Below the pieces are notes generated by a model that saw nothing but the letters and a program-made list of their open reading frames with translations, was not told where the DNA came from and made no database searches. From Fidelibacterota bacterium (GTDB taxonomy: Bacteria; Fidelibacterota; UBA8477), in NCBI GenBank assembly GCA_021734065.1, contig JAIPJQ010000001.1, forward strand, positions 19,251 to 83,250: a stretch of DNA of 64,000 bases. The letters are read 5' to 3'. This document shows, piece after piece, positions 32,366-41,600 of the stretch. Position 1 is the stretch's first letter. The number at the start of each line of letters is the position of its first letter. A program made the position numbers and the translations under genes.

Positions 32366-33142
32366 TTAATCGGACGCCTCTGCCCGTCTCTCCTGCAGCT
32401 CTTCGTAGGCGCGGGTGAGTTGTTTTCGACTGGACTTTTCCAAGTCCTCCGGATTCACCTGGCGCATGATCTGCTCAGCCTCATCCAGCTCGTTTTTACC
32501 AACCAGGGCTTCCGCTTTTGCCACCAGCGCTGCTTCGCGGTAGGTTGTGTCATAATACAAATCTAAAATTTCATTGAAATAGAGTAACGCTGAATCCCAC
32601 TCCCGCAGCTTCAGGTAAAGTATCCCGGATCCATACAGCTTATGCGCCAGTTTCTCCCGAATCTCCACAATATGTTCAGTCGCCCGGGGCACATGTTCAC
32701 TTTGCGGGAACAGGTCAATGAAGTTTTGCATCTCTTTCAGCGCTCGTTTTGTAAGGGTCTGATCTAACCGGTAGTCGGGTGATAACAGGTAGTAACTTTC
32801 CGCCTTTCGCCAACTGGCTTGTTCAACGAAGGGCGAGTTAGGCATACGGTTGATCAATCGATTGTATTCATCGATGGCAATAAGGTACTCTTCCCGGAAA
32901 TAATGAGTTTCTGCAAGCTGGAACTGAGCATCATCAGCGTACACACCCACCGGATCGTTGTACACGATGAAGGTGAAGGTCTCCTCCGCTCTCAGCCAGT
33001 TTTTCTTCTCCATGAGTTCCAGACCTTTTTCGTATTCCTGCTCAATGTTATTCACATCAAACTGGGGCTTGGATCCTGCGCAACCCTGGAAAATCCACAG
33101 GGTAAGCAGGCTCAGAACAGTCAGCTTTATCCATTTTACCAT
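32366..33142 (-). CDS. bamD: outer membrane protein assembly factor BamD (TPR lipoprotein)
   Basis: Lipobox LWIFQGC followed by YfiO/BamD-type TPR helices (YEKGLELMEKKNWLRAEETF, AQFQLAETHYFREEYLIAIDEY). The ATG at 33142 is preceded by AGAGAGGGA. The track ORF starts 7 codons earlier. Confidence 0.8.
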   Translation of the reverse strand: MVKWIKLTVLSLLTLWIFQGCAGSKPQFDVNNIEQEYEKGLELMEKKNWLRAEETFTFIVYNDPVGVYADDAQFQLAETHYFREEYLIAIDEYNRLINRMPNSPFVEQASWRKAESYYLLSPDYRLDQTLTKRALKEMQNFIDLFPQSEHVPRATEHIVEIREKLAHKLYGSGILYLKLREWDSALLYFNEILDLYYDTTYREAALVAKAEALVGKNELDEAEQIMRQVNPEDLEKSSRKQLTRAYEELQERRAEASD

Positions 33143-33173
33143 AAAGTTTAATCCCTCTCTCATCGCGTCTGGT

Positions 33174-33920
33174 TCAGAATGTCACCACAACCTGGAGACC
33201 GCGTCGGTTAATGTGGGTATCGGGTAGAAGTGTGGCTTGCCAATTTTTACTTGCATAGGTGGTAATATCGGTACCGATAGCCGCTTCGAAAGCGCTAATC
33301 AGATGGTTGAACATGAGTATCGTCACGGTATGCTTGGCTTTTTTACCATAATCATTGGCGGCTCGGCGCATGAGCGAATACTCGTATTTATGAGGTGTTA
33401 ATAATTCACCATGGGCGGTAGAATCAATGTTGTCTTTGTCGTAATCATCCCAGCCGCAGATGAATTCGTTGTACTTCCCGACGTTCTCGTAATAATGCCT
33501 GTCCTTTACCGGATATTTAATGCCGTCGATGGTCTCATAATCCATGGCGTGCGTCTGGATAAATCCACAGTGATGCACCTGCCCGTTAATAATCGTTTCC
33601 TCTGAAAGCCACAGGTCAAAATCCCAGTATATATCCACAAAATTCTGATAGTCGGTAATCGCCTGTCGCTCCTGTTTTAGATAGAAATAATGCCCCGAAA
33701 TCATACCGGCTTCTACCAGCGCGAAGGCCGCGGCGCGTTTATAATGCCCTTCACTCAACTGTCCCCAGCCCGGAAGAACGAGAGATTTAACAAAATTCGC
33801 CTGCATCTCACGCGGTAGCGGCTGGGGCTCACCATCCAGGCTTCCGACAAACTGAGCCATACCCAGAGAAACGCTTGTCAATAGCACCAAAATTCTTGCA
33901 ATCAGTGAATGTCGTATCAT
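33174..33920 (-). CDS. hypothetical secreted/outer-membrane protein with DUF5683-like N-terminal motif
   Basis: 248 aa with a signal peptide. The motif SLVLPGWGQLSEGHYKRAAAFALVEAG resembles the PG(L/W)GQ motif of DUF5683. The C-terminus ends ...LQVVVTF (aromatic terminal residue). Its start overlaps the upstream stop (TAATG). Confidence 0.5.
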   Translation of the reverse strand: MIRHSLIARILVLLTSVSLGMAQFVGSLDGEPQPLPREMQANFVKSLVLPGWGQLSEGHYKRAAAFALVEAGMISGHYFYLKQERQAITDYQNFVDIYWDFDLWLSEETIINGQVHHCGFIQTHAMDYETIDGIKYPVKDRHYYENVGKYNEFICGWDDYDKDNIDSTAHGELLTPHKYEYSLMRRAANDYGKKAKHTVTILMFNHLISAFEAAIGTDITTYASKNWQATLLPDTHINRRGLQVVVTF

Positions 33921-36900
33921 TACTCAAACCCAAACAAAATTCGCCAGTAATAGCGCATTTCCCGGCCATACTGGTAGGTCGTTTCTGTCGTTTGTACCGA
34001 GAGTGGATCCAGCCCATAGTAACCGGAAAATTCGATTGCAGTGGGATACCCATAGAAGGAGAATCCACTCAATCGTAATTCCAGTCCCACATCCTTACGC
34101 CAGCGCGAATTGCCCAGGTCATTCTGGATCAGGCTGGAAATTTCTCGCGGTGAATCCAATCTGGCGCCAGCGTCGCCTGTCCAGGCGCTGCCAATCTGTC
34201 CCACAATACCCAGATAAATATCCTGTAGCGCAAATTGTGCCACAGGCAGGTACAGATCTCGCATCAGGGGGAATCTCAGCGTTCCGGTAAACACCGCTTT
34301 CCGGGTTCCGCTCAATCCATAGAACGGATATCCCCGTAAACCCGGCAGACCGCCCCCGAAGTCATAGAAAAAATCATCCAAATGATTATGCGGGATAATT
34401 GTCATGTCGGTATTTAATGACAAAACGGTTTTTGAATTCTGCCCCAGACGCTTGCCGTAAAAATACTTCATATCCAGCCGCTGGTAGTGGTAGAGATTAT
34501 AGATTTCACCCCAACTGCCCGTGTCCTCATTGTACCCGAACTGGTCCATGAAATTATGGTAATTGTCACGCAACGAAATATCAAATTGAACACCGGAAGG
34601 ATTAATGCTGCTTTCCTGCCGTACGGCTAACCCGGCGAACCGATAGTGCAATCCCCAATCAACCCCCTTAAAATAGTCATAGGATAAGCCGCCTACAGCG
34701 AGATTCCCATCATCACCAGGCAAAGGAATCAAATGGTCATCAATGTAAGTATTGTAAGTCCCCGCAGTGATATCTGCGTCCAAATAATGGGTATCCGGTA
34801 ATCGTACCGCGGCTTTCAGCGTCGCCGCTGTCAGTCTAAATTTGATATCAGACTCTGCAGTATACACGTTGTTGTAGTAAATTAATTCTTCCCGCGTATT
34901 GCGGGTCATGTGATAGACTTCCAGCGACAGTGTTGGTAAAAAACCATGGTATTCCGCCAACAAAAACAGATCTGAATCGCCATTCAGACCAATGTCACCA
35001 CCGCCCATTAGAAGATAGTTATCCAAAATTTCATTGGAAAAGAAATAGAGTCCGGGTTTTACAACCGTCTTGTTTTTAGACTTGTCAATGTCCACCTGGA
35101 CCCGCGGCAAAATGAACATGGGACCATACCGCAATTCATACGGGACATGGGATAATGGTTTTTCATGCCGAGTCCAATCCTTCGCAGGCAGATCACGCCG
35201 GAAAAAAACCGGCATGGAAGGTGCGCCGTAACCAGTCCGGGCAATGGATTCGTCGTAAAAATCGCTTTGGTCTAATTTTGCGATATTAAAACCCAGACTG
35301 TCGTACAATGAATAAACCAGCTTTTCACCGTGTAATTCCGGCTGAAAAGCCCCGCCCACCACATGGGTCAGTGCTGCTTCCCTGCCCGTCTTCAGGTCAC
35401 GCTCATAAATATTAAACACACCTGAACGGTCATGAGCATAGATCAGTGTCGTTTCATTTAATGGATAGGGGTCTCTCTCATCCCATTCGTTCTCCAGCAG
35501 CGGTTCCCAGGAATTCGCATCCAGATCAAAAATACCAATGTCCCGATTATACGTGGTCACATAGTCGAACACGATGCGCGTATTGTCCACCCATCGGGGG
35601 GTAAAAACCTGTGTTCCCGGCAGCATGCGGGTGAGTGTAATAGATGAATCCGGGTGGTCAGGAAACGTCATTTTCAGATTATTGGTACCATCATGCAATC
35701 CGACATAAACAATTTTGCTGCCATCCGGTGACCAGGCCGGATTCTTGGCACGCTCGCCAAAGGTGAGTTGCTTCTCGCTGCTATCCGGATGGATGGAACG
35801 AACGAATAGATCATTGAAGCGTGACCCTGTCAAGGCAAAGCTGCACCGGTCACAATTCTGCTGATGCTTCAGACTTGCCGGGTGCTGATGTGCGGGGAAT
35901 CCGGGTGATGATGAGTTGCGCATGGCCGGCGGAACCACCAGTCCTCCGTCCCAGAAATTTTTTCGGCTGATTACCACGCGCTCACCATCCGGGGCCCAGT
36001 CAAATCCTTCCGCTCCCGGCACCAGCAACAGCGGCTCATCACCATCCCGCTTCAGGTAGAATCCCGTAAGCGACATGTAACTCTGACCGGCATTACTGAT
36101 AAAACCCAGAATGCTATCACCTGGTGCCAAACGGGGATGACTATTGGTGGCGCCGTCACGCTGAATAATATGCACCGGTGTGCGCTGTGGATCGGTGATG
36201 AGCGCTGCATAGGTCTTCTGTAACGAATCTTGCCAGGTAGTATGAAGTTGACGCTTAGATAAGCCGGTTTCGGCAGCAACCGCCTGGTAAAAGGAATAAT
36301 TCACCGGGGAACTCAGTCTCCGGGTAATCCGGTCCAGGATATCTTCACCCCAGTGTTTCGATAAAAAGTGAACCAGATTGAAGCCCTGATTATACACCGC
36401 CTCATTTTTCACACCCTCCTTGCCAAAGCTGTTGATTTCCGTGAAGGAGGGGATTTCATCATGGTAAATCCGGTCCCGGATTATCATATCGCGAATACTA
36501 TCCCACCAATCGTAGCGTGTGGCATTGGATTGGTACTGGGCGACGCCTTCTGCCCACCACATGGGGACCACCACGCCCGGCAACGGATAGGACATGATTC
36601 CATTGGGGTAACCATAGAGAACATCATCGCGGCGTTCCGGCTCGTATTGGATGACCTGGAAATAAGCCGCCGGGACATTCCGGCCAAACTTGCGGGCAGC
36701 CCGCAGGGAGATGATGTGCGTAAATTCGTGGGTCAGGACATCCCGGAGCCAGTAATGCGAACCGCGCAGGGAATAATCCAGCGGCATTGCCCAAATCTCA
36801 ATCTTGTTGTCATAGTAATAAGCGCCGCCATTGGCGTAATCATCCGTATCGCGAATGATGAGCTGGGTTTTTTCAGAAGGCTCGTAGTTATAGACCGCGG

Positions 36901-41415: not shown

Positions 41416-41425
41416 TTATCCTCCT

Positions 41426-41458
41426 AAAAATAAAAACCGAACGCTTCAACATCCGGTT
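41426..41458 (-). terminator. intrinsic terminator-like hairpin abutting the RBS of the PorV-like gene (candidate attenuator)
   Basis: The minus-strand RNA reads AACCGGAUG-UUGAAG-CGUUCGGUU followed by UUUAUUUUU, then AGGAGGAUAAAUG. The stem is 9 bp including two G.U pairs. Those pairs are mismatches on the plus strand, so the structure is strand-specific. Confidence 0.5.
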
Positions 41459-41571
41459 TCGTGCCTTTCGAGACCAAACCACTCAATCCGTAAGTGGTTC
41501 ATTCATGTCATCTGGTTGTTCTAGCTCCGAATTACCAATGTCTCGATAGGCTATCCCCTGTTTATGCGGCG

Positions 41572-41600
41572 AATATAGACGGTTCAAAATGGTGTGTCAA
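41572..41600 (-). promoter_or_regulatory. near-consensus sigma-70-type promoter for the outer-membrane locus
   Basis: The minus strand reads TTGACA (41600-41595), a 17-nt spacer, then TATATT (41577-41572). The predicted TSS is near 41565, about 150 nt upstream of the ATG at 41415. Confidence 0.55.

Follow-up and report, generated by a model that had tools for sequence, protein, structure and literature searches.

A porV-linked outer-membrane gene module that combines an inactivated M6-like protein with a predicted peptidase on an Omp85-type barrel

What brings a PorV-like barrel together with a protease-fold protein that has lost its catalytic residues and with an Omp85-type barrel that carries a peptidase and a propeller? 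This question is raised by a locus at positions 32,366 to 41,600 of a stretch of 64,000 nucleotides, hereafter the window, which covers positions 19,251 to 83,250 of contig JAIPJQ010000001.1 (assembly GCA_021734065.1) from a Fidelibacterota bacterium. Five minus-strand envelope open reading frames (ORFs), here called g1 to g5, are arranged there head to tail (Table 1), and all of them have signal-peptide-like N-termini. An earlier reading of the letters alone, referred to below as the original prediction, had described them as a PorV-like barrel, a dead M6 protease with a C-terminal sorting domain (CTD) of the type IX secretion system (T9SS), a peptidase-propeller-Omp85 chimera, a DUF5683-like protein and BamD. 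We find that g1 to g4 are a genuine, deeply conserved module travelling together across phyla, which we tentatively assign to the outer-membrane side of type IX secretion.

A module that travels together across phyla

The intergenic distances are 25 nt between g1 and g2, 16 nt between g2 and g3 and −1 nt between g3 and g4, where stop and start share one base in the junction TAATG. The distance from g4 to g5 is 10 nt when bamD is started at its first ATG and 31 nt when it is started at the second, upstream of which lies the better Shine-Dalgarno-like run (GAGAGGG); the previously given gaps of 25, 16, −1 and 31 nt were thereby reproduced, the last one starting from the second ATG. The tight array extends past bamD through nadD, a CaCA-type transporter gene, a methyltransferase gene, ftsE and ftsX as far as 28449, with gaps of 12, −4, 26, −4 and −4 nt, and beyond ftsX lie a hairpin (28404-28385) and hrcA. 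As the minus strand carries nearly all genes in the window, co-directionality alone weighs little, and the real evidence for a unit is the tight spacing taken together with the synteny across phyla.

More than 1000 homologs of g3 were found, mostly in Marinimicrobia and other lineages of the Fibrobacterota-Chlorobiota-Bacteroidota (FCB) group. The nearest relatives come from metagenome-assembled genomes (MAGs) of Candidatus Marinimicrobia/Neomarinimicrobiota and the more distant ones from MAGs of KSB1, Ignavibacteriales, Calditrichota, Fidelibacterota and Bacteroidota. Neighbours were scored by blastp in 80 genome loci anchored on g3 and counted only where the flank sufficed. An ortholog of g1 was located upstream in 52/52 loci, g2 was adjacent in 60/63, the remaining three having fragmentary matches, and g4 directly followed g3 in all but one of 72 (71/72). 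The order porV, M6i (the M6-like pseudo-protease gene g2), Omp85-peptidase (g3) and DUF5683-like (g4) is kept in essentially all related loci from Marinimicrobia, KSB1, Ignavibacteriales, Calditrichota and Bacteroidota MAGs, although g3 is only 33-37% identical between phyla and the flanking genes differ.

Outside Marinimicrobia, the gene directly ahead of this order is porU, which encodes the C25 sortase of the T9SS; we found it immediately upstream of orthologous porV in loci L047, L076, L077, L079 and L081-L085. The upstream genes of L077 encode a full PorU (985 bits) as well as a PorV (260.1 bits) and an M6i protein (714.5 bits) that both pass the cut-offs of their families, and L079 is alike. 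The analogy to porU and porV drawn in the original prediction thus extends to a true porU next to orthologous porV in KSB1, Bacteroidota and other MAGs.

Two further anchors lead to the same place. With M6i homologs from Bacteroidota-type MAGs as the anchor, porU, porV, M6i and a g3-like gene were found together in 4/4 distinct places, with a DUF5683-like gene after g3 in three of the four and a short ORF sometimes standing between M6i and g3; in one place LptF/G and SprA follow just downstream, SprA at 7 kb. Among 60 evaluable metagenome loci anchored on g4, 53 showed the porV/M6i/g3 cluster context, 44 of them with g3 directly upstream, while nine had M6i directly upstream and no g3, and seven placed g4 in unrelated contexts. 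The nine loci lacking g3 indicate that g4 stays with porU-porV-M6i even without it. In the three of them that we examined (L106 1694-4339, L112 1318-4206, L127 1609-4494), PorV is 880-960 residues long owing to an insertion of ~550 residues after the first strands, which includes LysM-like segments. The neighbourhood conservation proposed as a check on the original prediction was hence obtained from three independent anchors, g3, M6i and g4.

The same counts remove bamD from the module. BamD is adjacent in 58/67 evaluable loci, and all nine misses are non-Marinimicrobia. Within Marinimicrobia it is followed by nadD, the transporter gene and ftsEX in the order seen in the window, and it is linked no more tightly than nadD or ftsEX, which makes it a lineage-specific neighbour. 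The position immediately upstream of bamD, formerly regarded as part of the combination, is therefore a trait of Marinimicrobia and does not hold as a property of the module.

It is worth mentioning that some lineages add genes to the cassette, namely a second DUF5683-like paralog after g4, an Alginate_exp-like barrel, or a short ORF between M6i and the Omp85-peptidase gene (coordinates in Table 1).

The proteins of the module

Against the PorV/PorQ subfamily profile NF033709, g1 scored 233.9 bits (cut-off 90), and its sole PDB sequence match is PorV of Flavobacterium johnsoniae (6h3i_F, 1.1e-26), which agrees with the PorV-like barrel expected beforehand. The PorV equivalog NF033710 gave 181.4 bits for a cut-off of 250, the match being split into two stretches around an insertion. 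This acidic insertion of ~130 residues (residues ~252-385) bears calcium-binding-like motifs (DWDGDG/GGDWDENSD) and is present in Marinimicrobia orthologs but absent from those of KSB1 and Bacteroidota; we attribute the score below the equivalog cut-off to it. The syntenic ortholog in L077, which adjoins porU, passes that cut-off with 260.1 bits. Judged by these matches, g1 is an ortholog of genuine PorV and the predicted PorV of this lineage. PorQ and PorV2 were rejected as identities of g1 because their profiles scored 60.8 and 68.9 bits, both far below the PorV value. BamG, the FadL-like subunit of the Bacteroidota β-barrel assembly machinery (BAM), was rejected as well, as g1 has no PDB relative other than PorV and the BamG-like ORF of the window is a different one.

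The second protein, g2, matched NF052323, the family of T9SS-dependent M6-like inactivated metalloproteases, over residues 28-493 with 355.9 bits, below the cut-off of 600, and thus belongs to a divergent Marinimicrobia branch; its orthologs scored 714.5 bits in L077, passing the cut-off, and 585.9 bits in L079. The M6 domain model TIGR03296 was also hit (E 1.6e-11). At the position of the M6 zinc motif, g2 reads LALMLGFRLGLSPMYD, and in a 16-sequence alignment this position is variable among the other members, one ortholog having HQFGH. The family profile of g2 found the signature motif AHAFGHDLGLPDEYD of immune inhibitor A (4yu5), a weak match (E 0.0086) that places L, M and F where M6 proteases have H, E and H; the PDB entry 4yu5 itself reads AHAFGH. 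At that E-value of 0.0086, the alignment suggests that both zinc-binding histidines and the catalytic glutamate have been replaced. In its C-terminal half, g2 is similar to propellers of the FG-GAP/VCBS type and to seven-bladed propeller lectins, and the protein ends in a sorting domain recognised by TIGR04183 (32.9 bits, cut-off 23) and PF18962 (29.1 bits, cut-off 27). The family profile further matches the CTD of PorU (6za2_A, 3.1e-5), while a single-sequence search of the PDB with g2 returned nothing useful. By its sequence, g2 is a T9SS cargo-type protein whose M6 domain lacks the zinc-binding histidines and the catalytic glutamate, so that the dead M6 protease with a T9SS CTD stands as originally described.

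As a side observation, the M6i ortholog of L079 (6795-9926) reads AHQFGH, with both histidines kept and only the glutamate lost, while in most members all three are gone. Decay of the family may have been stepwise.

In an AlphaFold2 model of g3 built from 71 homologs (pLDDT 86.3, pTM 0.85), residues 35-306 fold into a mixed alpha/beta domain and residues 318-618 into a propeller, and a linker then leads to 16 long strands at residues 670-1064. The N-terminal domain is more than a protease fold, since the HExxH motif and the downstream glutamate are invariant in the 71 homologs (H132, E133, H136, E161 and E192, the latter in WWAEG). The match to Pfam Peptidase_MA_2 remains below the cut-off of 32.4 for g3 (26.4 bits) and reaches 34.2 bits for its homolog P0117. 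With its intact HExxH/E motifs the domain has the look of a working gluzincin of the MA clan and is predicted to be active, and the cassette would accordingly pair one dead metalloprotease, g2, with one apparently live one. For the propeller, the family profile of g3 found TolB (6pnv_A, 3.7e-18).

When the whole model of g3 was submitted to Foldseek, the top matches were the propellers of TolB and S9 peptidases and nothing but propellers, and the sequence profile did not reach BamA, so the barrel was modelled and searched separately. Modelled alone it showed 16 long strands at a pLDDT of 91.9, and all 50 top PDB matches belong to the Omp85 superfamily with a probability of 1.00, at TM-scores that are only moderate (~0.45-0.55). 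BamA of F. johnsoniae was the best match (9n2d_A, 5e-8); others were BamA of Escherichia coli and Bacteroides thetaiotaomicron, Sam50, TamA and CdiB. The stretch G928-L-R-G-Y932 in the 910-940 loop is the counterpart of the (V/I)RG(F/Y) motif in loop 6 of Omp85 proteins. G928 and Y932 are invariant and G931 is conserved to at least 90%, with position 930 below 90%, reading R in the window and K in a 12-sequence consensus. Pfam PF01103 (Omp85) did not match the g3 protein of the window and scored 39.4 bits on P0117 (cut-off 24). No polypeptide-transport-associated (POTRA) domain was detected in g3 by Pfam, NCBIfam or the model. Structure prediction and Foldseek together thus confirmed a POTRA-less Omp85 barrel with peptidase and propeller, and as these two domains stand in the place of POTRA, we file g3 as a WD40-like Omp85 protein and not as BamA. 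The N-terminus of an Omp85 barrel is periplasmic. In g3 the RGY loop is situated between strands 11 and 12, as in BamA, which puts the start of strand 1 at the periplasm, and by default the N-terminal domains too; the model would thus most simply have the peptidase and the propeller in the periplasm.

The WD40-like Omp85 subfamily was defined in 2014 by Heinz and Lithgow, whose table of members gives a BamA-like barrel, a TolB-like propeller and a region like an aminopeptidase (PMC4104836). The subfamily shares with g3 the TolB-like propeller and the aminopeptidase-like region that replace POTRA. We take the accessions listed for it to come from Caldithrix, Rhodothermus, Salinibacter, Chloroherpeton, Cloacimonas, Anaeromyxobacter, Sorangium and Geobacter. 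The original description gave the subfamily neither a function nor a genomic context (PMC4104836), and what is added here for the g3 family is that its HExxH/E is intact, that it is coupled to a DUF5683-like gene, and that it is linked to porU-porV-M6i.

On sequence grounds, g4 is a small envelope protein that is translationally coupled to g3. Its claimed relation to DUF5683 persists as a distant likeness only, as PF18935 covers just residues 43-98 with 19.5 bits, under the gathering cut-off of 26.7 (24.7 bits for the L079 ortholog); weak precomputed DUF5683 matches also occur on its relatives. Recurrent motifs of the family are S..LPG.G, YYE.IGKY.QF..GW and NH..SA.DA along with an aromatic residue at the C-terminus. 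The alignment of all lineages held no stretch conserved enough for the collection scan, for which a narrower alignment was used, and a single-sequence PDB search with g4 gave nothing useful. The neighbouring g5 is BamD as claimed, with 135.2 bits against TIGR03302 (cut-off 81.4), 73.5 bits against YfiO and a signal peptide that ends in ...FQGC.

Secretion, assembly or surface display

We read the locus as an outer-membrane, post-translocation T9SS cluster in the arrangement found in Marinimicrobia and in FCB bacteria other than Bacteroidia, and assign this reading a probability of roughly 0.45. PorV would gather CTD-bearing cargo at the translocon, and M6i, exported via its own CTD, would then take its place beside PorV at the cell surface, as a subunit that binds or scaffolds without catalysis; this role is modelled on that of PorU and PorZ at PorV and PorQ. 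Uncleaved CTDs have been described for the T9SS components PorU, PorZ and PorA (PMC11285876). The proteins g3 and g4 would constitute an outer-membrane pair with g4 as the stoichiometric partner, in which the periplasm-facing, propeller-gated peptidase may trim or clear T9SS cargo, CTD fragments or stalled clients near PorV. A propeller set before the peptidase could provide gated access for unfolded chains; such propeller-gated peptidases are known from tricorn and the S9 peptidases. In Marinimicrobia, bamD, nadD and ftsEX would merely be on the same transcript, with a single conserved promoter driving the array and a leader hairpin probably attenuating read-through.

The attachment genes of the porU-porV systems of Porphyromonas gingivalis and F. 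johnsoniae, PorZ and PorQ included, likewise have a PorV-family barrel beside CTD-bearing protease-fold proteins. They differ in that porV is followed here by an M6-like pseudo-protease with a propeller, not by PorU or PorZ, and that g3 and the DUF5683-like protein are without counterpart among the components named in the T9SS literature we searched; moreover, porU is not adjacent in this window. In architecture and in the loss of catalytic residues, the NF052323 family agrees with g2, and its name already states T9SS dependence and inactivation. It was built alongside NF052324 (PorU2) and NF052325 (PorV2), of which the latter is further from g1 (69 bits) than PorV (181 bits). A second CTD protein encoded in the window also counts for the T9SS reading.

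Several points weigh against this assignment. All functional steps are drawn from neighbourhood and fold. The window holds no PorU-like ORF by blastp, and porU and the other core T9SS genes are absent from it. Both g1 (181.4 of 250 bits) and g2 (355.9 of 600 bits) stay below their NCBIfam equivalog cut-offs. At ~81 residues, the CTD of g2 is without the extra length reported for the retained CTDs of PorU and PorZ (PMC11285876), so g2 may be ordinary cargo. CTDs that are cleaved at the surface are out of reach for a periplasm-facing peptidase. WD40-like Omp85 members are known as well from bacteria that have no T9SS, among them Myxococcota and Geobacter (supplement of PMC4104836, organisms assigned as above), which means that the g3 family is not intrinsically T9SS-specific.

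The last point leads to the serious rival, which we nevertheless judge to be unlikely, namely an outer-membrane protein assembly or quality-control module that works with BAM and not with the T9SS. Here g3 would be a BamA paralog equipped with a BepA-like protease and a BamB/TolB-like propeller, g4 an accessory subunit and BamD a partner, and PorV and the CTD protein would be prominent clients or co-regulated. A zinc metalloprotease at an Omp85 machine would indeed resemble the BepA quality control of the E. coli BAM, with the difference that BepA is an M48 protease with tetratricopeptide (TPR) repeats and a separate soluble protein, whereas the peptidase of g3 is fused to the barrel. The barrel itself is structurally closest to BamA barrels, those of the F. 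johnsoniae and B. thetaiotaomicron BAM structures included (BamADGH; PMC12611786, PMC12578637), Heinz and Lithgow likened the WD40-like Omp85 proteins to a BamA-BamB fusion (PMC4104836), and the subfamily is present in phyla that lack a T9SS. In every evaluable Marinimicrobia locus g4 is followed by BamD, and the window contains, besides BamD, a BamG-like gene 4.8 kb upstream. On the other side, g1 is PorV and not BamG, and the BamD adjacency is confined to one phylum; outside Marinimicrobia BamD is never adjacent, and where it is, nadD and ftsEX come next in the array. In the canonical BAM of E. coli, BamD docks on POTRA 5 of BamA, and g3 has no POTRA domains. The partners of g3 and g4 that recur across phyla are porU, porV and M6i, not BAM genes, and g4 remains with porU-porV-M6i where g3 is absent.

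Still less probable is a machinery for capture and degradation at the surface, in which the Omp85 barrel would export its own peptidase and propeller in a type Vd-like manner, as in PlpD, and act with the substrate-binding pseudo-protease, be it for peptide harvest or for the removal of cleaved CTDs from PorV. PlpD shares with g3 an N-terminal enzyme fused to a 16-stranded Omp85 barrel (a layout discussed in PMC4104836), an apparently live protease is paired with a dead propeller-bearing one, and both protease genes are tied to the surface-acting porV/porU. PlpD, however, has a POTRA domain and a patatin lipase as its passenger; g3 has neither, and carries a large propeller between enzyme and barrel. 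The RGY loop between strands 11 and 12 would by default leave the N-terminal domains in the periplasm, and it would be unusual for a barrel of 16 strands to let ~630 residues pass, with a propeller of 300 and a peptidase of 270 residues among them. That the genes form no functional unit, being unrelated envelope housekeeping genes brought together by chance and descent, is very improbable: nearly all window genes do lie on one strand and the array does run into the clearly unrelated nadD and ftsEX, but the order is held across phyla at 33-37% g3 identity with differing flanks, stop and start of g3 and g4 overlap, and three independent anchors across phyla retrieve the same cluster.

A bolder form of the T9SS reading would make M6i, g3 and the DUF5683-like protein unrecognised structural T9SS or attachment subunits in most non-Bacteroidia FCB phyla, served by a dedicated attenuator leader in Marinimicrobia. 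We consider it doubtful, if less so than the assembly module. If true, it would place an Omp85-family barrel directly in a secretion system other than type V, where the task of g3 might be to insert or anchor T9SS cargo, or else to process or recycle cargo and CTDs at the station of PorV and PorU.

How new is the combination? The original prediction knew of no described system of this kind, which is right for the combination, unreported in the literature we searched, and wrong for its parts, which are catalogued as NF052323 and as WD40-like Omp85 (PMC4104836). Each protein falls into a named, though uncharacterised, family, so the proteins are not categorically new. In the literature searched we found no paper on the cassette, on the NF052323 family or on its linkage to porU/porV, and no functional study of WD40-like Omp85 proteins, and the conserved association of porU-porV-M6i with an Omp85-peptidase and a DUF5683-like protein appears to be undescribed there. 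To our knowledge, nearly all that defines the components of the T9SS comes from two Bacteroidota models. The conserved cluster of porU, porV, M6i, Omp85-peptidase and DUF5683-like genes speaks for accessory subunits at the outer membrane which the model species may lack or hide. The functionally orphan WD40-like subfamily gains a first concrete and testable context, with the prediction that a live metalloprotease and a dead one work around PorV. For Marinimicrobia, which are abundant in the ocean and uncultured, the cell-surface and secretion machinery was not covered in the literature we searched.

Promoter, leader and further features of the window

Table 1. Positions of the genes, domains and control elements of the locus. 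Numbers are window positions, except in the last row, where they refer to the related loci named.
Feature	Position	Strand	Basis or size
g1, PorV-family outer-membrane barrel (predicted T9SS cargo shuttle)	40042..41415	-	457 aa
g2, M6i, secreted M6-like pseudo-protease with propeller-like C-terminal half and T9SS type-A CTD	37140..40016	-	958 aa
g2, T9SS sorting domain (residues 873-953)	37158..37400	-	TIGR04183 and PF18962
g3, HExxH peptidase, TolB-like beta-propeller and Omp85 barrel	33920..37123	-	1067 aa
g3, peptidase domain (residues ~35-306), HEFTH 132-136 at 36716-36730	36206..37021	-	motif conservation
g3, TolB-like beta-propeller (residues ~318-618)	35270..36172	-	PD40 repeat match
g3, Omp85-type barrel (residues ~670-1064), GLRGYPF loop between strands 11 and 12	33932..35116	-	domain model
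g4, small signal-peptide protein, distantly DUF5683-like	33174..33920	-	248 aa
g5, BamD lipoprotein	32366..33163	-	265 aa
Sigma-70-type promoter TTGACA-N17-TATATT	41572..41600	-	11/12 match
Conserved 5' leader, ~150 nt, ending in a terminator-like hairpin and U-run	41416..41571	-	alignment with related loci
Array continuation: nadD, CaCA-type transporter, methyltransferase, ftsE, ftsX (context)	28449..32353	-	nadD by profile match; order kept in Marinimicrobia loci
Lineage-specific cassette additions	L079 13977-14645, 14735-15697; L066 13928-14758; L083 13197-13586; L085 13240-13923

Promoter-like sites and hairpins were sought over positions 27000-43000 (16 kb) with shuffled sequences as a control. 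The promoter TTGACA-N17-TATATT named in the original prediction is the best promoter-like match in this range (11/12), in which the total of such matches is not above that of the shuffles (21 found, 24.6 expected). Many loci of Marinimicrobia retain it in the orthologous place, in the form TTGA(C/T)...TATATTCGCC, and the −35 box and the extended −10 box TATATTCGCC recur 5' of porV orthologs even in distant Marinimicrobia clades. A second promoter-like match, TCCACA-N18-TATAAT (10/12), is found at 37257-37286 (minus) in the 3' end of g2, ~135 nt before the start of g3.

Between promoter and porV lies a leader that measures ~150-175 nt in the clade of the window. Its hairpin (41460-41433) has a 12-bp stem and a U-run of 7-8 residues, is terminator-like, and stands directly before the Shine-Dalgarno sequence. 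The original prediction had overlooked it when it placed the first terminator no earlier than 28385-28404, where we do find a hairpin after ftsX. We aligned the region upstream of the porV ortholog from 11 related loci (L001-L010 and L029), in which the leader shows 74% mean column identity compared with ~55% identity for the PorV proteins. The boxes GAGGAGA, ACGTTACTGGGA and GGAACCTGGCGTTCATCTTTT precede the hairpin and U-run, and the hairpin stem ACCGAATG/CATTCGGT is invariant across the alignment. Distant Marinimicrobia clades have retained the promoter and a hairpin but not the U-run. No Rfam family matched the leader at E<=1 over 27000-43000. RNAalifold indicated a possible UCUUU:GAGGA anti-Shine-Dalgarno pairing and neither covariation nor compensatory pairs, the latter because the aligned sequences are too alike. 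As there is no space for a second promoter after the hairpin, transcription of porV must pass through it, and this obligatory read-through suggests attenuation, making the leader a candidate attenuator or cis-regulatory RNA. A small ORF (41652-41895, minus), Trm112/UPF0434-like by sequence alone, is situated between an MlaF-like ABC ATPase gene and the porV promoter.

The BamG-like gene mentioned above encodes a FadL-type barrel at 46176-47420 (minus) with 120 bits against NF053685 (cut-off 250), which matches BamG of F. johnsoniae (9n2d_B, 8.5e-15) and a BAM subunit of B. thetaiotaomicron. Its start overlaps an upstream ORF of 391 aa (47417-48592) that has no family, and a TPR protein of 441 aa (44885-46210) follows. 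This gene marks a second BAM-related locus at a distance of 4.8 kb from porV on the upstream side. The window also encodes one more T9SS cargo at 14202-16769 (plus), a Sortilin/BNR-repeat protein of 855 aa with a T9SS type-A sorting domain (TIGR04183, 26.6 bits, cut-off 23). Finally, a GWxTD-domain protein (TIGR04514, 126.8 bits) adjoins a 609-aa protein with weak Reg_prop and PorZ_N propeller matches (58849-60180 and 60120-61949, both minus).

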